A DNA stretch of 64,000 nt. Origin: Flavobacteriales bacterium (GTDB lineage Bacteria > Bacteroidota > Bacteroidia > Flavobacteriales_F > PHOS-HE28). Both the position numbers and the translations under genes were made by a program. The stretch spans positions 1,294,808 to 1,358,807 of the forward strand of contig JADKHI010000001.1 of NCBI GenBank assembly GCA_016721825.1, read 5' to 3'. Below the pieces are notes generated by a model. That model did not search any database and had not been told where the DNA came from. It saw only the letters and a program-made list of their open reading frames with translations. Positions 23,775 through 53,291 of this stretch are shown in pieces; within the stretch, counting starts at the first letter, position 1; the number at the start of each line of letters is the position of its first letter.

Positions 23775-25883
23775 TCAACGCACTTCGGCGCCCGGGGCAA
23801 TAATGTCCTTGGGCTGCACGAACACGAGCTTGCCCGCGCTGTCCTCGGCCATCAGCACCATGCCCTGGCTTTCGACACCGCGCATCTTGCGGGGTTCGAG
23901 ATTGGCCACCAGCACGACCTGCTGACCGACCAGTTCCTCCGGCGCGTAGTGCATGGCAATGCCGCTGACAACGGTTCGTGGTGACGCTTCACCCAGGTCC
24001 ACGGCGAGCTTCAGCAGCTTGTCGGCCTTGGGCACGCGCTCGGCGGCAGTGATGGTGCCCACGCGCAGGTCGAGCTTCGCGAAATCGTCGAAGGTGATGT
24101 TGGGCTTGGCAACAGGGGCAGGAACAGGAGCCGGACCAGGGGCAGGACCAGGGGCGGGAGCAGGGGCTGCTTGTTGAGGCTCCATGGCGTGCAGGCGTTC
24201 CACTTCCACGGCGATCTCTTCGTCGGTAATGGGCTTGAAGAGGTGCTCGGCTTTGCCCAGCGCCTGGCCTTCGCCTACGAGGTCACTGCGGAAGGCCTGG
24301 TCCCACGGCAGCGCGTTGATGCCGAGCATGCGGCGCAGCTTCTGCGCGGTGAAGGGCAGGAAAGGCTCCAGCACGATGCTGAGCGTGGCCGCGATGTTCA
24401 GACTGTTGGCCAGGATGGTGCGGGTGCGGACCGGATCGGTCTTCTCCAACTTCCACGGCTCGTTGTCGCTGAGGTACTTGTTGCCGGCGCGCGCCACGTT
24501 CATGGCACTGCTCAGCGCATCGCGGAAGCGGAAGTGGTCGATGTGCCTCGCCACCTCTTCCACGTTGCCGTGCACGGCGCTCCACAGGTCCATATCCAGG
24601 TCCGAGCGTTCACCGGCCGCCGGTGCGTTGCCGCCGTAGTACTTGTGGCAGAGCACGAACACGCGCTGCACGAAGTTGCCGAGGATGGCGACCAGCTCGT
24701 TGTTGTTCTTGTCCTGAAAGTCCTTCCACGTGAACTCGCTGTCGCGGAACTCGGGGATGATGGTGGCCAGTGCGTAGCGCAGCTCATCCTGGCGATCGGG
24801 CCAACGCTCGATGTACTCGTGCAACCAAACAGCCCAGTTGCGGCTGGTGCTGATCTTGCGGCCTTCGAGGTTGAGGAACTCGTTCGCGGGCACGTTCTGT
24901 GGAAGCACGTAGCCGCCGTGCAACTTCAGCAGGATCGGGAAGATGATGCAGTGGAAAACGATATTGTCCTTGCCGATGAACTGCACCAGGCGTGTGTCGT
25001 CGTTCTTCCACCACTTCTGCCAATCCTCGCCCTTGTCCTTCGCCCATTGCTTGGTGGCGCTGATGTAGCCGATGGGCGCATCGAGCCATACGTAGAGCAC
25101 CTTGCCTTCTGCACCGGGCAATGGCACGGGCACGCCCCAATCCAGGTCGCGCGTCATCGCACGGGGACGCAGACCGTCCTTCAACCAGCTGTTGCATTGG
25201 CCCAGTACCTGTGGCTTCCATTCGCCCGCGTCGTGGTGCTTCACACCGTCGAGCATGCCGGTGTTGATCCACTCATCCACCCATTGCTGGCTGCGCTCCA
25301 TGGGCAGGTACCAGTGCGTGGTGGGCCGCAGCACGGGCTTGGCACCGCTGAGGGTGCTGCGCGGATCGATCAGGTCCTTCGGGCTCAACGCGCTGCCGCA
25401 CTTCTCGCATTGGTCGCCGTAGGCATCGGGGTTGGCGCAGGTGGGGCAGGTGCCCATGATGTAGCGGTCCGCCAGGAACTGCTTCGCCTCCTCGTCGTAG
25501 TACTGCTGCTCCTCCTGTTGGGTGAAGGCGCCGTTCTCGTTCAGCTTGAGAAAGAAGCCCTGGCTGGTCTCCTTGTGCAGCTCGCTGCTGGTGCGGTGGT
25601 AGATGTCGAAGTGGATGCCGAAGTCCTGAAAGGCCTTGCCCATCAACGCGTGGTACTTGTCCACGATGGCGCGCGGGGTGGTGCCTTCCTTCAGCGCGCG
25701 GATGGTGATGGCCGCCCCATGCTCATCGCTGCCGCACACGAAGAGCACGTCCTTGCCGCGCTGGCGCAGGCTGCGCACGTAGATGTCCGAAGGCAGGTAG
25801 GCCCCGGCAATGTGGCCGATGTGCAGGGGGCCGTTGGCGTAGGGCAGGGCGGCGGTAACGGTGTGGCGGGCGGGTTCCTTCAC
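23775..25883 (-). CDS. metG: Methionine--tRNA ligase with a C-terminal EMAP/tRNA-binding domain
   Basis: TAALPYANGPLHIGHIAGAYLPSDIYVRSLRQRGKDVLFVCGSDEHG carries the HIGH motif. Zinc knuckle: CPTCANPDAYGDQCEKCG. C-terminal tRNA-binding domain: DLRVGTITAAERVPKADKLLKLAVDLG...LVANLEPRKMRGVESQGMVL. Confidence 0.95.
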   Translation of the reverse strand: MKEPARHTVTAALPYANGPLHIGHIAGAYLPSDIYVRSLRQRGKDVLFVCGSDEHGAAITIRALKEGTTPRAIVDKYHALMGKAFQDFGIHFDIYHRTSSELHKETSQGFFLKLNENGAFTQQEEQQYYDEEAKQFLADRYIMGTCPTCANPDAYGDQCEKCGSALSPKDLIDPRSTLSGAKPVLRPTTHWYLPMERSQQWVDEWINTGMLDGVKHHDAGEWKPQVLGQCNSWLKDGLRPRAMTRDLDWGVPVPLPGAEGKVLYVWLDAPIGYISATKQWAKDKGEDWQKWWKNDDTRLVQFIGKDNIVFHCIIFPILLKLHGGYVLPQNVPANEFLNLEGRKISTSRNWAVWLHEYIERWPDRQDELRYALATIIPEFRDSEFTWKDFQDKNNNELVAILGNFVQRVFVLCHKYYGGNAPAAGERSDLDMDLWSAVHGNVEEVARHIDHFRFRDALSSAMNVARAGNKYLSDNEPWKLEKTDPVRTRTILANSLNIAATLSIVLEPFLPFTAQKLRRMLGINALPWDQAFRSDLVGEGQALGKAEHLFKPITDEEIAVEVERLHAMEPQQAAPAPAPGPAPGPAPVPAPVAKPNITFDDFAKLDLRVGTITAAERVPKADKLLKLAVDLGEASPRTVVSGIAMHYAPEELVGQQVVLVANLEPRKMRGVESQGMVLMAEDSAGKLVFVQPKDIIAPGAEVR

Positions 25884-25920: not shown

Positions 25921-26140
25921 GTGCAGTTGACAGTAGGCAGGGGCAGGTGGCAGGAGCAGGTGGCAGGTGGCAGGAGCAGTTGGCAGGTGGCAGGAGCAGG
26001 GATGTGCGGCAGCGGAGCTTTCTTCTTCCGGGCCACAGGCCATGGGCTGCGAGCTTCGGGCCACGAGCTTGTTCTCGGCAGCGGAGCGTTCTTCATCTGT
26101 GGGCAGTGGGCAGTTGACAGTGCGCAGTTGGCAGTTGAAG
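25921..26140 (+). repeat. Mosaic intergenic repeat element, copy R1 (modules G-A-J-B-J-C-G)
   Basis: GGCAGG-type tandem array at 25937-26000. Two copies of the GCGGCAGCGGAGC..TTCTTC junction motif. GGGCCACGAGCT-type array at 26028-26070. GCAGTTG array at 26103-26140. The core matches 40449-40542 reverse-complemented. Confidence 0.8.
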
Positions 26141-26187
26141 TGCGCGCGGATGCTGAAGGACCGGTCTCGCGAGGATCTTCGCGGTTG

Positions 26188-27162
26188 ATGTCCTTGATCC
26201 TTCCCCCTGCACTCCGACCCGGCGACACCATCGCCATCATCCCAACCGCCCGCGCCATCACGGTGGAAGAGCTGCGCGATGGAATTGCAATGGCGGAAAG
26301 CTGGGGCTTGAAGGTGAAGCTGGGCGCAGGCATCGGGCGCAAGCATTTTCAGCAGGCCGGTACCGCCTTGGAGCGAGCCGCGGATCTGCAGGCCGCGATC
26401 CAAGACCCTGCGGTGAAGGCCATCTGGTGCGCGCGCGGCGGCTACGGCACCGTGCGGCTCATGGAGCACATCGACCTTTCGCCTCTACTGAAGAACCCGA
26501 AATGGATCGTCGGTTTCAGTGATGTCACCGTGTTGCACAATGCGTTGCACAACCTCGGTATCAGCACCCTGCATGCCCAGATGCCCCACAACATCGGCGT
26601 GAAGACGGCGGAGTGCGTGGAGACGTTGAGGAGGGCGTTGTTCGGAGAACTGCTTCAGATAGAGGCCACGGGCTCTGGGCCACGGGCCACGGGCTCAATT
26701 TCGGACAACGAACAACGAACAACCGACAACCGCCCCGGCACCTGCGAAGCCGAGCTCATCGGCGGCAACCTCTCCTTGCTCTACGCCTTGCGCGGAACAC
26801 CCTACGACATCGATCCGCGCGGCAAGATCCTCTTCATCGAAGACCTGGACGAGCTGCTCTACCACATGGACCGCATGGTGATGAACCTGCAGCTGTCCGG
26901 TTGGTTCAAGGAGCTGGCAGGCTTGGTTGTGGGTGGCATGGCGGATATGCACGACCGCAATCCGGCGGATCCCTTCGGGCAAAGCGCGGAGGCCATCATC
27001 GCGCAAGCGGTGGCACCCTGCACGTATCCGGTCTGTTACGGTTTCCCCGCAGGCCACATCCCGGACAACCGGGCGCTGGTACTGGGCCAAAAGGCGAAGC
27101 TCAGCGTCACCGCATCGGGTGCAACGCTGGTGTACAATGTTCCGACCAACGCTCGTTCGTAA
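26188..27162 (+). CDS. ldcA: S66 family LD-carboxypeptidase (muramoyltetrapeptide carboxypeptidase)
   Basis: The real start is MSLILPPALRPGDTIAIIPTA at 26188; the upstream part of the track ORF is translated repeat. Family motifs: WCARGGYG, VGFSDVTVLH (Ser nucleophile), GGNLSLLYALRGT, ILFIEDLDE, GFPAGH. Confidence 0.85.
   Translation: MSLILPPALRPGDTIAIIPTARAITVEELRDGIAMAESWGLKVKLGAGIGRKHFQQAGTALERAADLQAAIQDPAVKAIWCARGGYGTVRLMEHIDLSPLLKNPKWIVGFSDVTVLHNALHNLGISTLHAQMPHNIGVKTAECVETLRRALFGELLQIEATGSGPRATGSISDNEQRTTDNRPGTCEAELIGGNLSLLYALRGTPYDIDPRGKILFIEDLDELLYHMDRMVMNLQLSGWFKELAGLVVGGMADMHDRNPADPFGQSAEAIIAQAVAPCTYPVCYGFPAGHIPDNRALVLGQKAKLSVTASGATLVYNVPTNARS
26664..26732 (+). repeat. In-frame repeat-module segment inside ldcA
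   Basis: GGCCACGGGCTCTGGGCCACGGGCCACGGGCTC, then AATTTCG, then GACAACGAACAACGAACAACCGACAACCG. Total 69 nt = 23 codons, encoding ATGSGPRATGSISDNEQRTTDNR. Confidence 0.7.
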
Positions 27163-28392: not shown

Positions 28393-30196
28393 CCGACCCA
28401 AGCGCACCGGCAAACCCGCCAAGCGCGCCGGCGCACGGGCCTCCACAGAACGACGCCCCCGCAAGGGCAAACCCGGTGACGATGCCGTCGGCGACGACGA
28501 CCGCGCACGCAGTGCCTTCCGCGGCGAACCCGCGCCCGAACGCCCCCGCCGTTCCTTCGGTGACAACGACGACCGCCCACGCCGCCCCGCACCCCGCGGA
28601 GATGATCGCGGTGGCCGCCCCAGCAGCGACCGCCCCTACCGCAGTGGCCCACGTTCCGATGACCGCGGCGACCGTCCTTCACGCCCCAGCCGTCCGGGCA
28701 GCGACAGGCCTTCCGGTGATCGCCCCTACCGCAGTGGTCCGCGTTCCGATGATCGCGGCGACCGCCCTTCACGCCCCAGCCGTCCGGGTGGCGACCGGCC
28801 TTCCGGTGATCGTCCCTACCGCAGTGGTCCGCGTTCCGATGATCGCGGCGACCGTCCTTCGCGCCCCAGCCGTCCGGGCAGTGACGGGCCTTCCGGTGAT
28901 CGCCCCTACCGCAATGGCCCCCGTTCCGATGACCGTGGTGACCGCCCCTCACGCCCCAGCCGTCCGGGTAGTGACCGACCTTCCGGTGACCGCCCCTACC
29001 GCGCTGGCTCCCGCTCGGAGGACCGCGAACGCCCTTCGCGTTCCGCACGCCCCGGCAGCGACAGGCCCTCCGGTGACCGTCCTTACCGCAGCGGACCGCG
29101 TTCGGATGACCGCGGAGATCGGCCCTCGCGCCCCTACCGCCCCGGTGGCGACCGTCCTTCGGGCGACCGACCGTACCGCGGTGGCAGCGACGGACCGAGC
29201 CGTGGCCGCGATGGCCGCTTCACCAGCCGGGATGACAGTCGCCCTTCGCGCCCCTACGGTGGTCGTGGGGATGACCGCCGCCCGCCCTATTCCGACCGGC
29301 CCGCGCGCCCTTCCAAGGACGAACGCACTTACCGCCCGGACGATCCGCTGGCCCGCAGGCCTTACAACAAGGGCGAGCGCAGCCAACGCTTCGCTCTGCC
29401 CAACCCGGACAACGAAGGCCTGGTGCGCCTGAACCGCTACCTGGCCCAGGCCGGTGTGGGCAGCCGCCGCGAGGCCGATGAGCTGATCACCACCGGTGTG
29501 GTCACGGTGAACGGCAATGTGGTGACCGAGCTGGGCACCAAGATCAAGCCGGACGATGTGGTGCACTACGGCGGCCAGAAGCTGAGCATGGAGCAGAAGC
29601 GCTACGTGCTGATGAACAAGCCCAAGGACACCATCACCACCACGGATGATCCGCGCGAGCGCCACACCGTGATGGACCTGATCGCCAAGGCCTGCACCGA
29701 GCGCCTGTACCCCGTGGGCCGCCTGGACCGCAACACCACCGGCGTGCTGCTGCTCACCAACGACGGCGACCTGGCCAAGAAGCTCACCCACCCCAGCCAC
29801 GGCGCCGAGAAGATCTACCACGCCACCCTGGACAAGAGCATCACCGTGGACGACCTGCACAAGCTGGTGGAGGGCGTGCGCCTGGACGACGGACCCGCCA
29901 GCGCCGAAGAGGCCAGCTACGTGGGCGACAGCAAGCGCGAAGTGGGCCTGAAGCTGCACATGGGCCGCAACCGCGTGGTGCGCCGCATGTTCGAAGCCCT
30001 CGGCTACGAGGTGGTGAAACTGGACCGCGTGATCTTCGCCGGCCTCACCAAGAAGGAACTGCAACGCGGCCACTGGCGCCACCTGACCGATAAGGAGGTG
30101 ACCATGCTGAAGCGCATCAAGAGCGTGGCCACACCCACCACCAAGGAGGAACGCGGCGGCGGAAGACTGCGCGGCCAGCACTTTGGGGATGAGTGA
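28379..30196 (+). CDS. rluB: RsuA/RluB-family rRNA pseudouridine synthase with a long disordered R/D/P/S-rich N-terminal extension
   Basis: S4 domain: VRLNRYLAQAGVGSRREADELITTGVVTVNG. Catalytic motif: YPVGRLDRNTTGVLLLTNDGDLA. The N-terminal ~280 aa are low complexity and include 30-aa tandem repeats. Confidence 0.85.
   Translation: MSKADRPKRTGKPAKRAGARASTERRPRKGKPGDDAVGDDDRARSAFRGEPAPERPRRSFGDNDDRPRRPAPRGDDRGGRPSSDRPYRSGPRSDDRGDRPSRPSRPGSDRPSGDRPYRSGPRSDDRGDRPSRPSRPGGDRPSGDRPYRSGPRSDDRGDRPSRPSRPGSDGPSGDRPYRNGPRSDDRGDRPSRPSRPGSDRPSGDRPYRAGSRSEDRERPSRSARPGSDRPSGDRPYRSGPRSDDRGDRPSRPYRPGGDRPSGDRPYRGGSDGPSRGRDGRFTSRDDSRPSRPYGGRGDDRRPPYSDRPARPSKDERTYRPDDPLARRPYNKGERSQRFALPNPDNEGLVRLNRYLAQAGVGSRREADELITTGVVTVNGNVVTELGTKIKPDDVVHYGGQKLSMEQKRYVLMNKPKDTITTTDDPRERHTVMDLIAKACTERLYPVGRLDRNTTGVLLLTNDGDLAKKLTHPSHGAEKIYHATLDKSITVDDLHKLVEGVRLDDGPASAEEASYVGDSKREVGLKLHMGRNRVVRRMFEALGYEVVKLDRVIFAGLTKKELQRGHWRHLTDKEVTMLKRIKSVATPTTKEERGGGRLRGQHFGDE
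28628..29200 (+). repeat. 90-nt (30-aa) tandem repeat, about 6.4 copies, inside the rluB-like gene
   Basis: The unit is DRPYRSGPRSDDRGDRPSRPSRPGSDRPSG. The nucleotide string ACGCCCCAGCCGTCCGGG recurs with 90-nt spacing, for example at 28681 and 28771. Confidence 0.85.
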
Positions 30197-30247: not shown

Positions 30248-30362
30248 GCGTTTGGGGTGTGATCGGAACATCCGGCATCGCCGCCTCTGGCAGGCGAAGG
30301 TGCTCCATTGCGTATGTTCGAGGAATGAGATCGTGCAAGCGGCCGGAGGCCGGGATGGAAAG

Positions 30363-30922
30363 GGCACTCGGCACAGCCGAGCGCCGGTCGGAATTAAACA
30401 ACCAACACAGGGAATGAATCATGAATAAATCAATCAAAGCAGTGATGCTCTTGTCGCTACTCGCCATTTCAAATTGTGGCACTCGGGAAACTGCCGTTCT
30501 CTTGGAAGAAGCTCGGAAGGAAACAGTTGGGTCGAAGAAATTTGAACTCTACGATCAAATTATTCTTGCTGATAGCATGAATGATGTTGCACTTTATGAA
30601 AGGGGTCTACTACATGTCATGTATTACGAACATAGTATAGAATTGAGAAATGAAGGAAACAATATTGATAGTAGTGTTACACAGAAACATTATTTAAACG
30701 CACTTTCTGATTTCAGCAGAACTATTAAGCTTAATCCGAAAAACGGAATGGCCTATGCTAAAAGAGCGCGATTATATTCAATTATGAACAACATTAAGGA
30801 TGCATGCCAAGACTATATGAGTGCCTTTTCAAATGGCATTCCTGTCGATTCAGTTATATTGATTAATTGTCGTGACTGATTACCAAGCTTTACCTTACCA
30901 GCGGTTGGCTGTGCCGAGTGCC
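30363..30922 (+). mobile_element. AT-rich single-gene cassette bounded by perfect 16-bp inverted repeats
   Basis: GGCACTCGGCACAGCC at 30363-30378 and its exact reverse complement GGCTGTGCCGAGTGCC at 30907-30922 bracket the AT-rich ORF 30421-30879. No transposase is present. Confidence 0.4.
30421..30879 (+). CDS. Small lipoprotein with TPR-like repeats, foreign composition
   Basis: MNKSIKAVMLLSLLAISNCG contains a lipobox. The helical repeats (ALYERGLLHVMYYE..., YLNALSDFSRTIKLNPKNGMAYAKRARLYSIMNNIKDACQDY) are TPR-like. Sampled stretches are about one-third GC, against a GC-rich background. Confidence 0.75.
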   Translation: MNKSIKAVMLLSLLAISNCGTRETAVLLEEARKETVGSKKFELYDQIILADSMNDVALYERGLLHVMYYEHSIELRNEGNNIDSSVTQKHYLNALSDFSRTIKLNPKNGMAYAKRARLYSIMNNIKDACQDYMSAFSNGIPVDSVILINCRD

Positions 30923-31903: not shown

Positions 31904-32155
31904 ATGCGCATCATGGCCGCTACAATGCGCATCATGATCGCTACAATGCCCAACATAGCGTCTACCATGCGCATCCTGATCCCTACAATGCCCATCATAG
32001 CGCCTACTATGCGCATCATGATCCCTACAATGCCCATCCCAGCCGCTACCATGCGCATCATGATCGCTACCATGCCCATCATGGTCGCTACAATGCGCAT
32101 CATGATCGCTACCATGCCCATCATGGCGGCTACCATGCGCAGGGCATCCGCTTGC
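31904..32155 (+). repeat. 21-nt tandem repeat (true period 42 nt), about 12 copies
   Basis: ATGCGCATCATGATCGCTACM alternates with ATGCCCATCATGGNSGCTACM. Two + frames and two - frames stay open across the array. Confidence 0.9.
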
Positions 32156-35616: not shown

Positions 35617-35994
35617 AGCTGTATTGCAGGTAAGTTATCCAGAATTCTATGAAGTCATTCCCCCTCCGACGCTCGGGTGTCCCGGGTGTGTTACGCTCGC
35701 ACCCATCCGCTTGCCGCTCAATAACTCGCCGCTTACATTCGGACAGGAGGGCGAAGGAGCGCCCGACCACAACAGTTGAAAGGCCCAAAGGCTCAGTAGC
35801 CAGCGTCGCAATTCGAGTAAAGCAAAGCTCGTGGCTCAGGGCTCGGGGCCAATGGACGAAGGAGCAAGCTCCGCTGACGTAGACCAACTCGCCGCTAGCC
35901 GCTCAATACCTCGCCGCTAAAGAATGAGGCAAGCTCCGCGTCCATTGCGTATGTTCGATGAGCGAGATCACAGTTGCACACGAATGCCAAGGTC

Positions 35995-36957
35995 ATGAAA
36001 AGCGCTCTATTCCTTCTTAGCACCCTGCTCGGCTTAGGAACCTACGGACAGAACCTAGTTCCGAACGGCAGCTTCGAACAGTACACTGGCTCCTGTCAGT
36101 TCGGTGTTGGATACGCTAACATGTATGATTGGGTCCGGCCAGATTGTGGTCAATGGCCGGGTTTCGGACATGCTTGCAACAATGGGCTCGGCAATGGTTC
36201 TGGAACCCCGCAAGGTGGCTTGGGATATCAAGAACCAGTTGAGGGTGTTGGCTATGCAATGCTTTGGACATTGCGGATGAATTCCCAGTTATACCCGGAC
36301 GGGAACCCTCAGGTCTATGTCTCTGTGGATTTGACAACACCACTGGTTGCCGGCCAGCGCTATTGCATGCGCTTCTACGCGAACCTCGTCGATTCGGCGA
36401 GCTACAAGACCACAGCTCTGCATGCCTTGTTCTGGTATGGTGTACCAAGTGCATGCAACCAAGCAGATTCCACATGGGACGACCAAGCACAGATCACCTT
36501 TGACATAACCGATGTTGACACGATGAACTGGAAGCTCCTTGAAGGATCCTTCGTGGCCAATGGAGGTGAAGTGAACTTGACGATCGGCTCGTTCCTATTC
36601 GACAGTGAGATCATCAGTACATTTTTAGGGAGTCATCCGATCCATGGCGATAATGCTCTGTATTTGATCGATGATGTCTGGGTGTGGGCCTGCGAAGTCG
36701 GTGTAGAGGAGCACACCAATGATCGCCTGCGCCTGTACCCGAACCCGGCTACGGACCTGGTGCGGATCGCGTTGAACGCCGGTGAGGAAATGGGTACCGT
36801 GAGCGTGCTGGATGTGCAGGGCCGCACGGTGCTTCAGCAGGCCTTCCGAGGCGTGCAAGCGGAGCTGGATGTTTCCGGCTTGAGCAGTGGTGCATACGTG
36901 GTGCAACTGCGCACGGAGCGTTCGGTGTTGTCGGCGCCGTTGCAGGTGGTGCGGTAG
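35995..36957 (+). CDS. T9SS type A sorting domain-containing protein, tandem paralog 1
   Basis: Start at MKSALFLLSTLLGLGTYGQNLVPNGSFEQ. The C-terminus LRLYPNPATDLVRIAL...VLDVQGRTVLQQ...SGAYVVQLRTERSVLSAPLQVVR is a type A sorting domain. The N-terminal two thirds diverge from paralogs 2 and 3 and are less GC-rich. Confidence 0.8.
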   Translation: MKSALFLLSTLLGLGTYGQNLVPNGSFEQYTGSCQFGVGYANMYDWVRPDCGQWPGFGHACNNGLGNGSGTPQGGLGYQEPVEGVGYAMLWTLRMNSQLYPDGNPQVYVSVDLTTPLVAGQRYCMRFYANLVDSASYKTTALHALFWYGVPSACNQADSTWDDQAQITFDITDVDTMNWKLLEGSFVANGGEVNLTIGSFLFDSEIISTFLGSHPIHGDNALYLIDDVWVWACEVGVEEHTNDRLRLYPNPATDLVRIALNAGEEMGTVSVLDVQGRTVLQQAFRGVQAELDVSGLSSGAYVVQLRTERSVLSAPLQVVR

Positions 36958-37108
36958 TTCGTTCCGAGGATTGGGTGACTCGCGTGCGTCACGCTCTTAC
37001 CCATCCGCTAGCCGCTCAAGAACTCGCCGCTAGAGGAATGAGGCAAGCTCCGCGTCCATTGCGTATGTTCGATGAGCGAGATCACTGTTGCACACGAATG
37101 CCAAGGTC

Positions 37109-38068: not shown

Positions 38069-38219
38069 TTCGTTCCGAGGATTGGGTGTCCCGCGTGCGT
38101 CACGCTCTTACCCATCCGCTAGCCGCTCAAGAACTCGCCGCTAGAGGAATGAGGCAAGCTCCGCGTCCATTGCGTATGTTCGATGAGCGAGATCACTGTT
38201 GCACACGAATGCCAAGGTC

Positions 38220-39406: not shown

Positions 39407-39997
39407 TCACTTCACACACGCCATCCCCTCCTCCACGGCGCGGAACTTAGCCAGCACGGCGGCTTGGTCCTGCGCGTCGGCAGCGGTAAGGTCCACGGGG
39501 CCGTTGGTGGTGTGGATGCGCACGGCCTGGGCCTGATCATCGAGGAAGGTGAGGATGGGCTGATCGCAGACCAGGGCGTCGCTGTAGTTCCAGCTGCGGT
39601 TGGTGCGGTCGAACTTGAGGATGCGCACGGCACCGGCGTCGGCACCGGTGAGCTGCGTGGTGGTGAAGGTGTCCTTGGTGGCATCGATGCGGTAATCAAT
39701 GCCCTTCAGGGTCACCAGCTGCAGCTCGTGGTCGCCCTCGTTCATGCTGATGGGGTTGCTGCCGCTCCAGAACTCGATCAGGTTCAGGATGATGGTGTCC
39801 ACACCGACAACGATGGGGTATACGATGCATCCGGGGATCCAGAACAGCAGGGACTTGAGGAACTTGCTGTCGGTGATGCCGTCGTGGAAGGCATAGGCCT
39901 TCTTGGTGAGGGCGAAGCTGCCGAAGCAGCCGGTCTGGGTGATGGTGATGCTGCCGAGCAGCAGGAACAAGGAGGCGTTGCGCAGGGTCTTCTTCAT
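39407..39997 (-). CDS. DUF3332 family lipoprotein
   Basis: MKKTLRNASLFLLLGSITITQTGCFGSFALTKKAYAFHDG matches the characteristic DUF3332 N-terminus (GCFGSF.LT.K.Y). Confidence 0.75.
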   Translation of the reverse strand: MKKTLRNASLFLLLGSITITQTGCFGSFALTKKAYAFHDGITDSKFLKSLLFWIPGCIVYPIVVGVDTIILNLIEFWSGSNPISMNEGDHELQLVTLKGIDYRIDATKDTFTTTQLTGADAGAVRILKFDRTNRSWNYSDALVCDQPILTFLDDQAQAVRIHTTNGPVDLTAADAQDQAAVLAKFRAVEEGMACVK

Positions 39998-40097
39998 GGG
40001 TGCGGTGGGTTGGGTTGAGCGCCAAAGGAACCGGGGATGGGGGGCTGCACACGGAGATGGAGGCGGGCGTTATCAACGGGATGCGGTGGATCGGGGT

Positions 40098-40660
40098 GGC
40101 TCGCAGGCTCGCTGGGGGTTAACCGCAGATGACGCAGAGCACGCAGATGAAATGGCGGCATAGCGAAGGCTCGCTGGCTCGCTGGAGTTTAGAACCACAG
40201 ATGAACGCAGATGCACACAGATGGAATTCTGAGCGCGCGATGGTTGAGCTCGCAGGCTCGCTAGTTGAACCACAGATGGCACAGATGGCCGCAGATGAAA
40301 TGGCGGCATGGTAGGGGCTCGCAGGCTCGCTAGTGGTGAACCACGGATGGACACGGATGAACACAGATGGAAATACCTAGAGCGATGAACGGGGTTCGCT
40401 GGCTCGCTGGGTGCTAACCACGGATGGACACGGATGCACACGGATACTGATAAGAGCTTGCTGCCGAAAACAAGCTCGCGGCCCGAAGCTCGAAGCTCGT
40501 GGCCGCAGCTGAAGAGGAAAGCTCCGCTGCCGCACATCCCTCTTGCCGCTAGCCGCTGGCCAACTCGCCGCTCCTGCCCTTGCTCCTGCTCCTTCCAACT
40601 GCCCCTGCCCCTGCCCCTGCCCCTGCTCCCGCGCCTGCTCCTGCCCCCGCCCCTGCCCCC
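40098..40660 (-). repeat. Mosaic intergenic repeat element, copy R3 (largest copy; forward orientation on the minus strand)
   Basis: Five tandem 68-79 bp units start at 40098, 40168, 40247, 40315 and 40393. Each is GGCTCGCWGGCTCGCT plus three CRCRGATG units. They are followed by modules J, B, J, F and an 89-bp C-rich A module (40572-40660). Confidence 0.85.
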
Positions 40661-40740
40661 TGATCTTCCCTCCCCGAACACTTCCCCCCCGCCCCGGCAC
40701 GTTCTGTGCTCAACAACACGCTGTGAACGATCGGTCTTCC

Positions 40741-43428
40741 ATGAGGGTCAGGGCCTTGCGGCTGCGGGATACTTTGCGCATCGTGCCCATTCTGCGCAAG
40801 CTCCGCAAGGTGCTCCTGATCTCCGTTGGGGTCGTGGTGCTGCTGTTCGGCGCCCTGATGGGCCTCGCCTACGCCTACGAGGATAAGGTGTTGGCGGTGT
40901 TGCGCGACGAGCTGAACGCCCACCTGACCACCCCCGTGCAGGTGGCCGGCATGGAGCTCACCCTGATCAAGCGTTTCCCCCAGGCCAGCCTCAGGCTCAC
41001 CAACGTGATGGCCTTGGAGGCCCGGCGCGACAGCCTGCCTGCCGACACCCTCCTTTACGCCGGTGACCTCTACCTGGAGTTCGGCCTCTTCGACCTGCTG
41101 GGCGGCGACTACACCATCAAGCAGGTACACGGCCAGGATGTGCGGCTCTACCCCGGGCTGGACGCGGATGGCCTGGGCAACTGGACCATCTGGAAGACCG
41201 ACAGCACCGCCAGCAGCAGCACGGCCTTCGCGCTGAACAAGGTGACCTTCGACGACCTGGTGGTGCGCTACCGCGATGCGCGCAGCGAACTGGAGATCCT
41301 GACCACGAGCCCCGACCTGGCCTTGAGCGGCCGCTTCAAGCCCGAAGGCAGCACCACCACGTTGCGTGGCCGCGCCACCTTGTTGCACTGGACCGAGAAG
41401 GGCAACGACGTTCTGAACGACCGCAGCGCCCAACTGGCTCTGGAGCTGGCGTTCGGGGGAAGCGACGGCGGCTTCCACATCACCAAGGGCGAAGTGCTCA
41501 CTGGCGATGTACCGCTGAACGTGACACTGGACGTAACACCCGGACCGAAGGGCGAAGCGCTGGACCTGAAGGCCAACGGACTGGGGCTCGACCTAGCCGA
41601 TGTGGTGCAACTGCTGCCCGAGGTGGCCGTGAAGAAACTGCGCCGCTATGGCATGGAAGGTGACGCCGACCTCGCCTTGCACTACCGCGGTGTCATTGCC
41701 GAAGGGCTCGCGCTGAGCGCCGGGTTGAAGGTGCGCGATGGGCGGATGAAGGAGCAGCGCAGCGGCACCGTGTTCAAGAACATCAACGGCGAATTCGCGG
41801 TGGACCTGCGGCCCGATGGCACACCGACCAAGCTTGTGGTGAAGGGCTTCAGCGCCCAGGCCGCCAGTGGCACCGTGAGCGGTTCGCTGGACATGCAGGG
41901 CCTCGCCAACGCCAAGGTGAAGCTGGACCTGAAGGCCAACATCGCCCTGGCCGACCTGCTGCGTTTCGCCCAGGTGGATACGCTGGAACAAGTGCAAGGC
42001 ACCCTCGTCGCCGACGCCCATGCCGTGGGGAAACTGCGTGACGTCAGCGACATCCGTGCGGCGGACCTGCGGGCTCTGACCTTGAGCGGTACCGGTCGCC
42101 TGAGCGGCGCCAGTTTGAAGCTGAAAGGCGTGCGCCACCGCCTGACCGACCTGGACGCGCAGCTCGCCCTGAAAGGCAACGACGCCACCGTGAGCGGCCT
42201 TACCGCCAGCGTGCAGGGGCAAGCCATCCAACTGGATGGTTCCCTGCGGAACCTGATGCCTTATCTGCTCTTCAAGGACCAGCGCCTGGCCATCGACGCG
42301 CGGCTCGTGTCGCCCTCGTTGGACCTTGCGGCGTTGCTGCATGAAGAGGGTGGCGCGCAGGGCACCGACTATGCACTCGTGCTGCCCACCCTGATCGACC
42401 TCGACCTGCAGGCCGACATCGCGCAGCTCGCTTTTGAGGACTTTCGCGCCGAACGCATCCACACCAAGTTGCGCTTGCACGACCAGGTGCTGAGCGCCGC
42501 GCCCCTCACCTTCGGCACAGCAGGCGGCACGGTGGTCGCGGACCTGGAGCTGGACGGTCGATCCGCGCAGGCCTATCCGCTGGCCGTGAACGCCTCGGTG
42601 AAGGGCATGGACATCAGCGCCTTCTTCAAGGAGTTCCAGGATTTCGGGCAGACCTTCATCGGCCACAAGAACCTGAAGGGCACCACGCACGCGCAGATCG
42701 CCTTCGCCGCGCCGCTGAGCCCCGCGCTGCAGATCGATCAGGACCGCATGGTTTGCGTGCTCGACCTGGGCATCGACAAGGGCGAACTGATCGGCCACCA
42801 GCCGCTGATCGACGTGGCGGACTACCTACGCAGCAACAAGCTCGTGTCGCCCTTCGTGGACACCGACGAACTGCGGAAGCGCCTGGCGCACGTCACCTTC
42901 AGCGACCTCGACAACCAGATCGAGATCCGCGACCGCACGGTCTTCATCCCCAACATGCTCGTGCACAGCAGCGCCATGGACATTGAGGTGAGCGGCTCGC
43001 AGACCTTCGCCGGCGGCATCGACCACCACCTCAACTTCCGCCTGAGCGACCTGTTCCGCAAGAACAGCGGCGAGGACGAGTTCGGCCCCGTGGTGGACGA
43101 CGGCACCGGCATGCGTGTGTTCCTGCACATGTACGGCACCACCGCCGACCCACAGTTCGCCAACGATGGCGCCATGGCCAGCGCACGCCGTAAGCAGCAG
43201 CTGAAGCAGGAGACCGCTACGTTGAAGAACATCCTGCGCGAAGAATTCAGCGGCGCGGGCGAACGCACCAGCACCCCGAACACCGCCACCCCGCAGCCCA
43301 GCTTCACTGTGGAATGGGACGGCACCGACAGCACCACCACCGCCCTGCCGCCCCCACCGAAACGCCGCAAAGGCCTGGGCCGCTTGCTGAGCGAGGAAGA
43401 GGAGAAGCCGGTGATCACTGTTGAGTAA
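40741..43428 (+). CDS. AsmA family outer-membrane assembly protein
   Basis: The real start is MRVRALRLRDTLRIVPILRKLRKVLLISVGVVVLLFGALMGLAYAY (N-terminal TM anchor) at 40741. The long beta-rich body and the C-terminal region (DIEVSGSQTFAGGIDHHLNFRLS) are typical of AsmA-like proteins. The upstream part of the track ORF is translated repeat. Confidence 0.75.
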   Translation: MRVRALRLRDTLRIVPILRKLRKVLLISVGVVVLLFGALMGLAYAYEDKVLAVLRDELNAHLTTPVQVAGMELTLIKRFPQASLRLTNVMALEARRDSLPADTLLYAGDLYLEFGLFDLLGGDYTIKQVHGQDVRLYPGLDADGLGNWTIWKTDSTASSSTAFALNKVTFDDLVVRYRDARSELEILTTSPDLALSGRFKPEGSTTTLRGRATLLHWTEKGNDVLNDRSAQLALELAFGGSDGGFHITKGEVLTGDVPLNVTLDVTPGPKGEALDLKANGLGLDLADVVQLLPEVAVKKLRRYGMEGDADLALHYRGVIAEGLALSAGLKVRDGRMKEQRSGTVFKNINGEFAVDLRPDGTPTKLVVKGFSAQAASGTVSGSLDMQGLANAKVKLDLKANIALADLLRFAQVDTLEQVQGTLVADAHAVGKLRDVSDIRAADLRALTLSGTGRLSGASLKLKGVRHRLTDLDAQLALKGNDATVSGLTASVQGQAIQLDGSLRNLMPYLLFKDQRLAIDARLVSPSLDLAALLHEEGGAQGTDYALVLPTLIDLDLQADIAQLAFEDFRAERIHTKLRLHDQVLSAAPLTFGTAGGTVVADLELDGRSAQAYPLAVNASVKGMDISAFFKEFQDFGQTFIGHKNLKGTTHAQIAFAAPLSPALQIDQDRMVCVLDLGIDKGELIGHQPLIDVADYLRSNKLVSPFVDTDELRKRLAHVTFSDLDNQIEIRDRTVFIPNMLVHSSAMDIEVSGSQTFAGGIDHHLNFRLSDLFRKNSGEDEFGPVVDDGTGMRVFLHMYGTTADPQFANDGAMASARRKQQLKQETATLKNILREEFSGAGERTSTPNTATPQPSFTVEWDGTDSTTTALPPPPKRRKGLGRLLSEEEEKPVITVE

Positions 43429-43429
43429 G

Positions 43430-43694
43430 TGTCAAGGGTCAAGTAGCAAGGGACAAGTGACAAGAGGCTTCGGGCCATGAGCTGCGAGCCACGAGCTTAT
43501 TTGCGGCAGCAGAGCCCTCCTCATCTGTGTCCATCCGTGTTCATCTGTGGTTTATTCAACGCCGGCAGCGCGCTTGCGCGCGGTTCCATCTGTGGCCATC
43601 ATATCGCGCGCAGGCACAGGCAGTGCAGTTCATCTGTGTCCATCTGCGTCCATCTGTGGTTAAGTCTCTCGGAAGGAACTGCGAGCCTGCGAGC
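43430..43694 (+). repeat. Mosaic intergenic repeat element, copy R4 (modules E-B-J-C...C-D)
   Basis: GTGTCAAGGGTCAAGTAGCAAGGGACAAGTGACAAG (E). CTTCGGGCCATGAGCTGCGAGCCACGAGCTT (B). TTGCGGCAGCAGAGCCCTCCTCATC (J). CATCTGTGTCCATCCGTGTTCATCTGTGGTT appears twice (C). GCGAGCCTGCGAGC (D). Confidence 0.8.
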
Positions 43695-45306: not shown

Positions 45307-45795
45307 CAGGGGCAGGGCCAGGACCAGGGGCATTGAACCTCCGTATCATTTCGTCCGCTTTAGCTTTCGTGAAAACGAACCAACAATGGCAGGCTTCAAG
45401 GACATGTCCATCTACAAGAAAGCGTTCGAAATGGCACGCATGGTGTTCACACTGAGCAAACGCTTTCCGAGCGAAGAGAAGTTCTCACTTACCGATCAGG
45501 TGCGGCGTTCGTCGAGATCGGTGACCGCTCAATACGCCGAGGGCTATCGCAAGAAGCGCTACCCGGCCCATTTCATTTCAAAGATGACCGATGCGGACGG
45601 CGAGAACGCCGAAACGCAAGTGTGGTTAGACCATGCCGTGGCCTGTGGCTACGTCACAGAGAATGATATCGCCCCCATCCTCAAAGTCTCCGAAGAAGTT
45701 GGACGCATGCTTGGGGACATGATCGAGAACCCCGAGAAATACGTTGGCAAGCGGCCCTAAAGGGATCACTTGCCCCTGCGCCTGCTCCTGCCCCT
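45307..45795 (+). mobile_element. Candidate cassette: four-helix-bundle gene bracketed by about 25-bp imperfect inverted repeats of the GGCAGG module
   Basis: The left end is AGGGGCAGGGCCAGGACCAGGGGCA (45308-45332). The reverse complement of the right end (45771-45795) is AGGGGCAGGAGCAGGCGCAGGGGCA, a 21/25 match. The cassette fills the whole gap between the kinase stop (45305) and the hemW start (45800). Its interior is less GC-rich than the flanks. Confidence 0.4.
45386..45760 (+). CDS. Four-helix-bundle protein (23S rRNA intervening-sequence protein family; Avd-like fold)
   Basis: MAGFKDMSIYKKAFEMARMVFTLSKRFPSEEKFSLTDQVRRSSRSVTAQYAEGYRKKRY...ETQVWLDHAVACGY matches the conserved pattern of this family. 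Confidence 0.8.
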   Translation: MAGFKDMSIYKKAFEMARMVFTLSKRFPSEEKFSLTDQVRRSSRSVTAQYAEGYRKKRYPAHFISKMTDADGENAETQVWLDHAVACGYVTENDIAPILKVSEEVGRMLGDMIENPEKYVGKRP

Positions 45796-48049: not shown

Positions 48050-48229
48050 AGCGAAGCCCATGCTTCCTATCATCCCCCGCGCCCTAGCGAGGGGGTGGAG
48101 GGGGAGCCCACAACGCAGGGGCTTCGCTACGATGCTCTTCAAGGTGCGGATCGCGCTTCTGCTCCCCCTCCGCCCCCTCGTTGTTCCTCCCTGCGGTCGG
48201 ACGCGGGGGATGGAACGAAGCGATCCGCA
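48050..48229 (+). other. Dense set of interleaved inverted repeats (candidate structured RNA or palindromic element)
   Basis: There are four complementary pairs of at least 10 nt. Pair one: 48088-48106 with 48162-48180 (19 nt, one T-G position). Pair two: 48072-48081 with 48202-48211. Pair three: 48050-48059 with 48119-48128. Pair four: 48145-48154 with 48220-48229. Confidence 0.3.
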
Positions 48230-48482
48230 ATGCTCGGCACGGAGATCCGGCTTCGGATTCCTGCGCGCCAGCGGCTTAGGAGATGGCCACGTCGGGCCAG
48301 CTTTACTGGGATCTCTTGTGCCCTCCTCGCCAGGACGTGAGGAGGTCATGGGCGTCCCGCAGGCGCGAAGCTCCCGCCGCTGGCGCATGGATGGCACAGT
48401 CCTTCGCGGATGACACACCGACACATCTCCGATCACCTTCCCCACCGCAAGTACCTTTGGCCCTCGCTCGCTCCCTACGCCC

Positions 48483-49103: not shown

Positions 49104-49967
49104 ATGAGAACCCTGCTGACCCTTCTGCTCACGACACTGATCACCATCGCTTCGGCACAGACCGAAGTGGTGATGCGCAGCCACAAGTTCAGCAACGGTG
49201 TGCAACCCACCTTCAGCGTCAACTTCCCCGGTGCGGACAAGGCCTCGGTGGAAGCCTGGTTCGAGCGTGCCCTGAAAGGCATCAGCGATGAGGTGCGTGA
49301 CAAGAAGGAAGTTGTCGCCACCGGCGCGCGCATCCCGGCCGCTACAGGCGATACGCTCGCGGTCTTCCTCGCCGTGGAACAGCGCTCGAAAGGCGATGAT
49401 GCCGTCGTACACCTCGGCTTCCGCATCCAGAACGTGTTCATACACAGCGACAGCGAGCAGCGCCGGATCGATGGCTGTAAAGCCTGGGTGTACGAGCAAG
49501 CCGTGGCCTACAAGAAGGACCTGGCGAACAAGTCGCTCGATGAAGCCCTCAAGGTGAAGGCGCGCTTGAACAGTGAAATGGAGATGCTCCAGAAGGAACA
49601 GAAACGAGCCGAGCTGGCCATCGAACGCAACACCACACGCAGCGCCGAAGCCGTGACGGACAAGGCCAAAACCGAGCTCGACCTGAAACTCGCCGACGAG
49701 GATGTGCGCACCCACCAGGCCAGCAGCACCGCCAACCCCACGGACGAAGAGATCAAGCAGCTGAACGCCGCACTGAAAGAGCAACGCAAGTTGCAGGAGC
49801 GCATCACCAAGCTCACCAAGGAAGATTCCGACGCGCAGCAGAAGATCGTGGAGCTGAAGCAGGCGCTGGTGAAGAACGCCACCGATCAGGATGCAAAGAC
49901 GAAGGCGATCGCCGAACAGCAAGTCGTCGTGGAAACGCGAAGGAAGGTGCTGGATGAGGTGAAGTAG
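49104..49967 (+). CDS. Secreted hypothetical protein with a C-terminal coiled-coil
   Basis: Signal peptide MRTLLTLLLTTLITIASAQ. The C-terminal 150 aa are K/E/Q/A-rich heptad-like sequence. Confidence 0.65.
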   Translation: MRTLLTLLLTTLITIASAQTEVVMRSHKFSNGVQPTFSVNFPGADKASVEAWFERALKGISDEVRDKKEVVATGARIPAATGDTLAVFLAVEQRSKGDDAVVHLGFRIQNVFIHSDSEQRRIDGCKAWVYEQAVAYKKDLANKSLDEALKVKARLNSEMEMLQKEQKRAELAIERNTTRSAEAVTDKAKTELDLKLADEDVRTHQASSTANPTDEEIKQLNAALKEQRKLQERITKLTKEDSDAQQKIVELKQALVKNATDQDAKTKAIAEQQVVVETRRKVLDEVK

Positions 49968-50109
49968 GTCAGGAGGCAGGGGCAGAAGCAGGAGGCAGTG
50001 ATCTGGACAGCGAAGCCTTCGTCTTCAGCCGGCCACGAGCTGCGAGCCTTGAGCCCCGAGCTTCTTTTCGTTAGCAAGCTCCTATCAATTTCCGTGTTGA
50101 TCCGTGGTT
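49968..50109 (+). repeat. Mosaic intergenic repeat element, copy R6 (modules A-J-B-J-C)
   Basis: GTCAGGAGGCAGGGGCAGAAGCAGGAGGCAGTG (A). GGCCACGAGCTGCGAGCCTTGAGCCCCGAGCTT (B). TTCGTTAGCAAGCTCCTATC (J-like). TCCGTGTTGATCCGTGGTT (C). Confidence 0.75.
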
Positions 50110-53190: not shown

Positions 53191-53291
53191 TCAAGCTTCA
53201 AGTCACAAGGGACAGGTGACAAGGGTTCAATGGGGGTGCTCGGAGTTCAGTCCTTGAGACTTGGTACTTGACCCTTGCGCCTTGTCACTTG
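53191..53291. repeat. Two inverted CAAG-type (module E) arrays
   Basis: TCAAGCTTCAAGTCACAAGGGACAGGTGACAAGGGTTCAA lies at 53191-53230. CTTGAGACTTGGTACTTGACCCTTGCGCCTTGTCACTTG lies at 53253-53291. They are imperfectly complementary and the first begins directly after the stop at 53190. Confidence 0.7.

Follow-up and report, generated by a model that had tools for sequence, protein, structure and literature searches.

Bacterial interspersed repeats, among them the repetitive extragenic palindromes and bacterial interspersed mosaic elements (REP/BIME), the enterobacterial repetitive intergenic consensus (ERIC), the mycobacterial interspersed repetitive units (MIRU) and the short tandemly repeated repetitive sequences (STRR), are informative on genome plasticity, mRNA processing and strain typing, and to our knowledge what is known of them comes almost entirely from cultured Proteobacteria, Actinobacteria and Cyanobacteria. 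The mycobacterial MIRUs are tandem intergenic units of 40-100 bp which abut genes, vary in number and contain short open reading frames (ORFs) phased with the neighbouring genes, and the REPINs are mobilised by RAYT transposases. The small dispersed repeats (SDR) of Nostoc, reportedly described by Elhai and colleagues in 2008, are said to be dispersed sequences of 21-27 nt tied to, or nested in, tandem heptamer tracts, and are used here as a lead and not as a test. Among eukaryotes, the foldback (FB) transposons of Drosophila have inverted arms of short tandem repeats, variable in length, around a loop that is empty or gene-bearing, and a transposase is known in some copies. BIMEs are extragenic dispersed mosaics of conserved motifs in defined combinations (PMC3116915), and tandem intergenic repeats of 5-11 nt, with heptamers prominent, have been reported from Cyanobacteria, Beggiatoaceae and a few Bacteroidetes, with slippage and translational regulation proposed as explanations for the heptamer-type repeats (PMC4679880, also summarising Mrazek et al. 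2007). The element described here occupies positions 40098-40660 of a 64,000-nucleotide stretch of DNA (the window, about 62% G+C) from a metagenome-assembled genome (MAG) of an uncultured activated-sludge Flavobacteriales bacterium. The family to which it belongs departs from the known ones in its source, uncultured wastewater Flavobacteriales, and in being built of concatenated tandem-oligonucleotide tracts instead of palindromes. We favour, tentatively and at a little short of an even chance, the explanation that it is a clade-specific dispersed repeat acting at the DNA level, copied by recombination or transposition, remodelled by slippage and conversion, and probably without a dedicated function.

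On the plus strand, the main copy runs in the order five C/D units, J', B, J, F and the A run, with the following parts:

40098-40445, minus strand: five tandem C/D units of 68-79 bp each (sequence reading, Tandem Repeats Finder, enrichment)
40449-40539, minus strand: the core J-B-J', the best-conserved part of the family (model match 87.8 bits, E=1.9e-26)
40540-40572, minus strand: F module of AGCGGCNAG-type units (sequence reading, enrichment)
40573-40660, minus strand: A run of 88 bp, about 14 hexamer/heptamer units, GGCAGG on the minus strand (Tandem Repeats Finder), hypervariable among strains

The D doublets (GGCTCGCWGGCTCGCT) start at 40098, 40168, 40246, 40316 and 40393 and on the minus strand read as two 8-bp units, GCGAGCCW. 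Each is followed by a C triplet, AACC plus three CRCRGATGNN units (starts at 40121, 40193, 40268, 40339 and 40416), which on the minus strand becomes three units of about 10 bp, CATCYGTGNN, with GTGGTT at the end. The spacers are common to alternate C/D units, which gives a 146-bp two-unit super-repeat; Tandem Repeats Finder reported 40099-40439 as period 146 with 2.3 copies and 40573-40659 as period 6 with 14.3 copies, and its periods across the blocks were 6, 7, 8 and 9-10 (9-10 for C and 8 for D). The core is made up of J' (40449-40471), B (40472-40504; three heptamer-like units of GGCCRCGAGCT type) and J (40511-40539), the J joints being two non-repetitive segments of about 25 nt (CGGCAGCRRAGC) on either side of B. 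A typical block consists of 2-14 tandem copies of a 6-10-nt unit, and within one copy every block points the same way, as direct repeats.

The counts of the block patterns in the window were compared with those in Markov shuffles of the window. The C doublet was observed 10 times against 0.02 expected, D 5 times against 0.02, the B pattern GGCCRCGAGCT 4 times against 0.06, the J pattern CGGCAGCRRAGC 4 times against 0.04 and the A pattern GGCAGGNGCAGG 7 times against 0.14, an excess of 30- to 500-fold over the shuffles. The constant order is A/E-(F-J)-B-J'-C-D, in which F-J is optional; six copies align in it, and it recurs in relatives. Because the block order is constant and the non-repetitive J joints are shared, the copies are best regarded as a dispersed family with common ancestry. 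A model built from the J-B-J' sequence matched four full copies (40449-40539, 26000-26095, 50002-50087 and 43463-43522) with E=1e-16 to 1e-26, together with weaker partial matches at 26653-26704, 35862-35940 and 35825-35856, and the window thus contains four full and two or three partial copies per 64 kb. These results agree with much of an earlier sequence-only reading of the same DNA: its mosaic of few modules in constant order is borne out by the six-copy alignment and by the enrichment, its proposed check against shuffled sequence gave block counts of 4-10 for 0.02-0.14 expected, its five tandem D plus C units followed by J, B, J, F and A were confirmed from the sequence and Tandem Repeats Finder, and the recurrence of the order that it had listed at 25921, 43430-43694 and 49968-50109 holds at the E-values of the core model.

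The further copies and partial copies in the window are as follows:

25921-26145, plus strand: composite (GCAGT heptamers-A-J-B-J'-GCAGT heptamers) in the divergent spacer between metG and the LD-carboxypeptidase gene
43430-43694, plus strand: second composite (E-B-J'-C-spacer-C-D), inverted with respect to the main copy (core model E=5.8e-16)
49968-50109, plus strand: composite (A-J-B-J'-C), its first base directly after a stop codon
35700-35950, minus strand: partial copy (F, B, J, F, J-like); it lies upstream of a Por_Secre_tail gene, the first in a set of three paralogues
26653-26732, plus strand: B-like and ACAACGA heptamer tracts; they are in frame with the LD-carboxypeptidase and fall in its interdomain linker (core model E=2.9e-6)
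53191-53291, no strand assigned: E and E' inverted heptamer tracts forming a hairpin without cargo, beginning directly after the DUF4230 stop codon

The number of independent loci in the window is about eight, not the ten or more counted previously, since 24113-24168 is an in-frame Pro/Ala linker of MetRS, the tract at 26664 is likewise a coding linker, and 37005-37031 and 38116-38142 are copies made by duplication. The last two carry the F module, which is also found at 35705-35735 and 35886-35918; they are about 94% identical to 35892-36086 and stem from the tandem duplication of the three Por_Secre_tail paralogues, so that they are not independent. Beside these, a motif, CCATTGCGTATGTTCGA, occurs at 30300, 35950, 37058 and 38168, each time just upstream of an ORF and after a J-like segment, and includes TAtgTTcG, a sequence similar to the -7 promoter box of Bacteroidetes. 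In the LD-carboxypeptidase, the interdomain linker with its in-frame heptamer tracts is hypervariable, its length and sequence differing across homologues.

Stretches from relatives, from other strains and from IMG/VR contigs are labelled L001-L091. All four copies in the window which follow a gene start 0-2 nt after its stop codon (43428, 49967, 53190 and 45305). The description of the element as oriented holds for its internal block order and not for its position relative to flanking genes, which varies, the copy in L057 being opposite to those at 43430 and 49968. A 5' leader of fixed orientation was rejected on this comparison, for which only two window copies are informative. No sigma-70 promoter or intrinsic-terminator patterns were found, although such patterns are of restricted use in Bacteroidota.

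Two MAGs are close to identical to the window, GCA_016714845.1 (contig JADKCB010000021.1, 99.35%) and GCA_016719255.1 (98.9%). Except for the A run, the element was identical in five assemblies obtained independently of one another from different samples, and is therefore not an assembly artefact; among these assemblies the A run shows indels of 11 and 22 bp together with substitutions, and the number of C/D units is the same in all five. For comparison with a related species, L042, the 4-fold sites of AsmA and HK (0.84 identity) were used as the neutral reference. Against this value, the A run showed an identity of 0.67, with indels, and C/D units 2-5 an identity of 0.70 with 43 gap columns, and there are five C/D units in the window in comparison to six in L042. 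In a variable-number tandem repeat (VNTR) of MIRU type the unit number would vary between isolates; among the five same-species assemblies only the A microsatellite does so. The segments of about 100 nt beside both start codons are 0.89-0.99 identical, and the element lies beyond them. Whole blocks also differ: the orthologous AsmA-HK site has E and B in the window and an F block in L042, the main site of L042 has an extra J-F and one C triplet swapped for a CTCCGCG-type triplet, and at the metG site the B block of L024 is closer to the B of the window's main locus than to its own ortholog. At the level of these alignments, the comparisons demonstrate slippage and unequal exchange within tracts and a conversion-like replacement of tracts.

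True members of the family are confined to this species and near relatives (L001, L024, L040, L042, L047, L057 and L060). Scans of genome and metagenome collections with the J-B core and junction returned mostly chance coding matches (AAKKLAA-type peptides) and six true members, namely those just listed other than L001, whose composition is window-like where tested. In about 125 kb of more distant Flavobacteriales, which have flanking-protein homologues at 55-80% identity, the J-B-J' core had no match at the significance cut-off of E<0.01, the best being E=0.039 in L078. Four full and two or three partial copies per 64 kb in comparison to none in the distant relatives indicate a clade-specific expansion. 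In addition, the spacer between metG and the LD-carboxypeptidase gene (ldcA) is about 0 bp in L090 in comparison to 305 bp, with the composite, in the window, and the composite has evidently been gained at this site, as judged from the two sequences. L078 contains a 500-bp array of CGCAGAGG-type triplets and spacers, analogous to the C/D units.

Neither the J-B core nor the C-D junction was found in IMG/VR viral contigs. The C triplet by itself (CATCYGTGNN three times with the GTGGTT end) and variants of it (CTCTGCG...GTGA, CATTCGTG...GGTT and CACGAAT) do occur in phage contigs (L061-L075, L088 and L089), often 3-7 nt from a stop codon or as inverted pairs, beside other heptamer runs. The IMG/VR contigs with the C triplet encode phage proteins such as capsid, DnaB and exonuclease. 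In tetranucleotide usage they come nearest to an Opitutales reference, a weak indication of the host; tblastn gave nothing informative on the host of the phage contigs, and phmmer found no IVP genes (the four-helix-bundle family described below) beside their C modules.

The element was also compared with the established classes of intergenic repeat. It is extragenic and a dispersed mosaic of conserved motifs, as BIMEs are, so that the architectural part of the previously drawn likeness to BIMEs stands; palindromic units and alternating orientation are absent, all blocks being direct and in the same orientation, and 40440-40670 folds no better than shuffles on both strands (z +0.8 and -0.2), which removes both the BIME/REP assignment and a structured RNA. 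A REPIN/RAYT system was rejected, with no Y1_Tnp among the ORFs scanned near copies or in an annotated 20-kb stretch. Palindromic REPs, GACCCCGAAGGGGTC, and not oligonucleotide-tract blocks surround a classical RAYT (Y1_Tnp, 147 aa) at L078 6280-7120; the order thus also holds ordinary REP systems, distinct from these blocks. For a miniature inverted-repeat transposable element (MITE), the ends should be inverted, and here they are a D doublet and an A run, with no target-site duplication visible at the junctions. A CRISPR would have near-identical direct repeats of 21-48 bp with unique spacers between them and cas genes close by; here the likeness among J joints is no more than about 65%, what would be 'spacers' consists of repeated blocks, and no cas domains were found among the ORFs scanned. 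No Pfam match was obtained for ORFs across the element, whose frames are broken by gaps of 1-2 nt between species. The alignments, the core model and Pfam thus uphold the view of the sequence-only reading that the element is not a CRISPR, an insertion sequence or an ordinary MITE and that no ORF explains it. Tandem intergenic arrays of 5-11-nt units, longer than expected by chance, are present as in STRR-type repeats, although independent single-unit arrays are excluded by the linkage of different tracts in a fixed order, with shared joints, and by their being copied together. Inverted arms of short tandem repeats, as in foldback elements, are present too, in the AsmA bracket, the IVP arms and the hairpins described below. 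The 520-bp strain-specific insertion in L001 was considered as a member and is not one: it lies at L001 1807-2327, corresponding to 47676, in the spacer from the cyclase stop to the start of YjbR, has no counterpart in the window, and contains G/C-rich runs and a small membrane-protein ORF.

The absence of a named family, as claimed earlier, also withstood the searches. Only tRNA matched Rfam in the window at gathering scores and nothing matched in 39990-40750 at E<=1; phage and plasmid collections contained no blastn match to the element; and a full-text literature search for the C sequence returned none.

Two arrangements in the window place family tracts as inverted pairs around a gene, with the following features:

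39407-39997, minus strand: DUF3332 gene, left neighbour of the main copy, divergent to the AsmA-family gene
40741-43428, plus strand: AsmA-family gene (ATG at 40741, end at 43428), right neighbour of the main copy
45307-45332, plus strand: left A-type arm of the IVP gene, one of an inverted pair (25 nt, 84% complementary)
45771-45795, minus strand: right A-type arm of the IVP gene, inverted pair with 45307-45332

The AsmA-family gene lies bracketed between the main copy and the 43430 copy, which are in inverted orientation and have their A/E ends innermost, a pair that the sequence-only reading overlooked. One 46-nt pair between the two arms is 76% complementary and five 31-nt pairs are 87-94% complementary; the duplex has an energy of -188 kcal/mol in comparison to -140 +/- 8 for shuffles, and the cofold gain is -61.5 kcal/mol in comparison to -13.9 +/- 4.5. 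L042 retains this bracket, with F'/F as the inner pair. The tracts at 45307 and 45771, previously taken for single modules, are of A type as supposed and are actually the inverted arms of a gene cassette, whose gene at 45386-45760 encodes a four-helix-bundle PF05635 protein (23S_rRNA_IVP / bAvd-like). The Avd-like PF05635 proteins were first noticed in intervening sequences of 23S rRNA (PMC10053308). The long-range stem around this ORF has a fold z of -3.0, with 1 of 100 shuffles folding as well, and across IVP loci the duplex statistic is mostly weak (z -1.5 to -3.3, and +0.6 at one). IVP homologues of 70-81% identity in related MAGs sit at a different site, rho-IVP-DUF4199 in place of HK-HemN in the window, and the 4-fold-site identity of the gene between the window and L042 is 0.63 in comparison to 0.84 for its neighbours; the different site and the higher divergence together indicate that the cassette has its own history. 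Inverted tandem-oligonucleotide arms enclose the gene in every case, in the window, in L042 (150-640) and in L076, L078, L080 and L082 (about 9850-10450).

Other inverted tracts were found around DUF3332 in L084 and as empty hairpins at 53191-53291, at L076 10915-11000 between convergent genes and in the FtsX/LeuRS spacer just beyond the window (L091). In L090 (1975-2100) the LD-carboxypeptidase linker contains an in-frame hairpin, (GTGGCGA)n-loop-(TCGCCAC)n, with perfect heptamer arms. Pairing z-scores of 110-nt flanks, computed for all genes, carried much noise; the RAYT, one IVP and a TPR cassette stood out, and a signal at 49104-49967 was spurious on inspection. A 26-nt inverted repeat, 88% complementary, at 30363-30388 and 30897-30922 surrounds ORF 30421-30879, which is TPR lipoprotein-like, low in GC (49%) and apparently foreign DNA.

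Under the explanation that we favour, the element would have reached new intergenic sites via ectopic recombination or gene conversion, which the short oligonucleotide tracts common in the spacers of this lineage could seed, or possibly by a transposition step acting in trans. Once resident, a copy would shift its unit number by replication slippage and unequal exchange, and conversion between copies, including the inverted arms of one pair, would swap whole blocks. The element would thereby take up room that is tolerated between stop codons and conserved promoter or leader segments, and length-variable spacers, recombination substrates and, where copies are inverted, complementary arms around a gene would be its side effects. 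Both the copying mechanism and the lack of function are what we infer from these patterns, and several observations weigh against them. The F-J-B-J'-C1 core is 0.93 identical to L042 over 159 nt in comparison to 0.84 at 4-fold sites, which hints at a modest constraint. Fifteen IMG/VR contigs contain the C triplet at 30/31 identity, which is hard to fit with functionless DNA. The IVP arms stay complementary although their unit differs by lineage (GGCAGG / GCAGGA in L078 and L080, and GGGCAGT versus ACTGCCA in L082 and L083), and selection for pairing could account for this. The blocks that abut stop codons, four of four, make a defined role or an insertion target conceivable. In addition, orthologous copies are more alike than paralogous ones, so that conversion between loci is not frequent, and copy number and site preference are extrapolated from the about 71 kb of this genome examined in all. 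Functional alternatives are kept alive by the conservation of the core, by the phage contigs in which C is nearly identical, and by the IVP arms that co-vary.

One alternative, which we regard as unlikely, is a foldback-like non-autonomous mobile element whose inverted arms of oligonucleotide tracts would be recognised in trans by some enzyme, with the arms enclosing nothing, IVP or AsmA, and the solo composites being half-elements or decayed copies. The variety of what the inverted pairs enclose speaks for it, from AsmA, IVP (in the window, L042 and four other lineages) and DUF3332 to the empty hairpins and the in-frame hairpin of L090, as do the divergent history and changed locus of IVP and the gain of the composite at the metG / ldcA site. 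Against it, no transposase or recombinase gene adjoins any copy, and the copies show neither target-site duplications nor fixed termini. Of the four composites, two stand alone; the two arms around AsmA do not match in content, every copy compared is shared between species, so that no recent movement was observed, and the sole Y1 transposase found, that of L078, is flanked by classical palindromic REPs.

Ribosomal RNA precursors and 23S rRNA intervening sequences have flanking stems that are processed by RNase III. By analogy, the complementary tracts may be transcribed and pair across the cistron into a stem, cut by RNase III or protecting an end, which would uncouple the enclosed gene (IVP or AsmA) from its neighbours; we consider this rather unlikely. 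The stem enclosing IVP and the co-variation of its arms between lineages (L078 and L080 versus L082 and L083) fit such a role, and so do the cofold gain of the AsmA arms, the position of the tracts directly after stop codons and the lack of an intrinsic terminator pattern between AsmA and the next gene. The IVP family was, moreover, first found in rRNA intervening sequences excised by RNase III (PMC10053308). The pairing itself is less telling than it appears, since two inverted copies of one repeat are complementary automatically, and the duplex statistic is weak at most IVP loci. No sense/antisense asymmetry in pairing energy or G:U use was found in any bracket; similar sense and antisense duplex energies are expected from DNA-level copying, so that nothing here favours an RNA-level stem over it. 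The main copy also lies between divergent genes, upstream of both leaders, and is perhaps not co-transcribed with AsmA, and the solo copies have no partner.

A broader proposal, which we likewise hold to be rather improbable, is a bacterial counterpart of foldback elements, in which a shared and partly cross-phylum vocabulary of oligonucleotide blocks of about 30 nt, among them the C triplet common to this chromosome and the phage contigs, would form inverted arms bracketing cargo, and the composites would be arms or half-arms. The cargo would be nothing, a four-helix-bundle IVP gene or the 2.7-kb AsmA-family gene, and the complementarity of the arms might be maintained by hairpin-templated repair or because a processing stem is selected for, with the IVP protein as possible machinery.

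It is decidedly unlikely, in our judgement, that the blocks are protein-binding arrays on DNA or RNA, with C as three sites at about 10 bp and D as two at 8 bp, so that the main locus would carry 15 and 10 sites, respectively, between divergent promoters and serve as a regulator target, insulator or sponge. The regular spacing (periods 9-10 for C and 8 for D) is what such arrays would show, and post-transcriptional binders were proposed for the TAACTGA heptamer repeats (PMC4679880). The near-identical C triplet in this genome and in the Opitutales-like phage contigs, the analogous triplets (CTCYGCG...GTGA and CATTCGTG...GGTT) in relatives and phages, and the conservation of the core above 4-fold sites are consistent with binding as well, with the host of the phage contigs inferred from tetranucleotide usage alone. 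Against it, the C/D units turn over in number and order faster than neutral sites, and Y positions vary freely within units; both orientations to genes occur, and no candidate binding protein is linked to the copies. Finally, it is very improbable that the element is transcribed into a structured non-coding RNA or a 5' leader, for although the element is long, conserved within the species and upstream of genes, it folds no better than shuffles on either strand, has no Rfam match even at E<=1, consists of direct and not inverted repeats, and is inconsistently oriented to downstream genes.

The window contains three further repeats. A 21-bp unit, ATGCGCATCATGGTCGCTACA, is present eleven times at 31904-32141, without a Pfam match; its minus strand, if coding, would give a His/Cys/Asp-rich heptad, (HCSDHDA)n. 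Nested inverted repeats cluster at 48050-48230, downstream of YjbR, one example being CGAGGGGGTGGAGGGGGAGC / GCTCCCCCTCCGCCCCCTCG at 95%, and at 28628-29184 six copies of a 90-bp coding repeat lie in the N-terminal extension of an RluB-like pseudouridine synthase.

These results have some practical bearing. The closest homologues of the flanking genes sit on contigs of 1-2 kb, and the element breaks short-read assemblies; it also warns against ORF or RNA calls in these spacers. If the inverted brackets are functional or mobile, they would offer a first handle on the highly abundant and unexplained PF05635 four-helix-bundle genes, and on the sharing of modules with phages. If the family is only selfish DNA, the A run would still be a usable VNTR for strain tracking.

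In comparison with the known systems, the general class of tandem 5-11-nt intergenic repeats has already been described in other bacteria (PMC4679880), and we did not find a description of different tracts strung together in constant order by non-repetitive joints and copied as one unit, or of such tracts as inverted arms around genes. The family resembles the BIME, REP and REPIN elements of Enterobacteria and Pseudomonas in being extragenic, dispersed, present in many copies and a non-coding mosaic of few motifs, and differs in that those consist of imperfect palindromic units in alternating orientation, whereas here there are direct tandem oligonucleotide repeats without palindromes. With the MIRUs it shares the behaviour of its C/D part, with five units in one species and six in the other, although the units here are irregular (68-79 bp) and without a frame. 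The J joints would be the analogue of the Nostoc SDR, from which, as the latter are reported, both phylum and sequences differ. Like the STRR and TAACTGA repeats, the tracts are intergenic and variable in copy number, sometimes overlap stops and in a few cases are in frame (PMC4679880); those repeats are single-unit arrays, whereas here several tracts are concatenated, linked by joints, copied as a unit and found in inverted pairs. The cassette recalls the 23S rRNA intervening sequences in that a PF05635 protein is enclosed by complementary flanks able to form a stem, but it lies between protein-coding genes, and its arms are tandem oligonucleotide tracts. With the foldback transposons, finally, the family shares inverted arms of tandem repeats around a loop that is empty or gene-bearing, a likeness seen here at the level of sequence, in a bacterium and not in a eukaryote.

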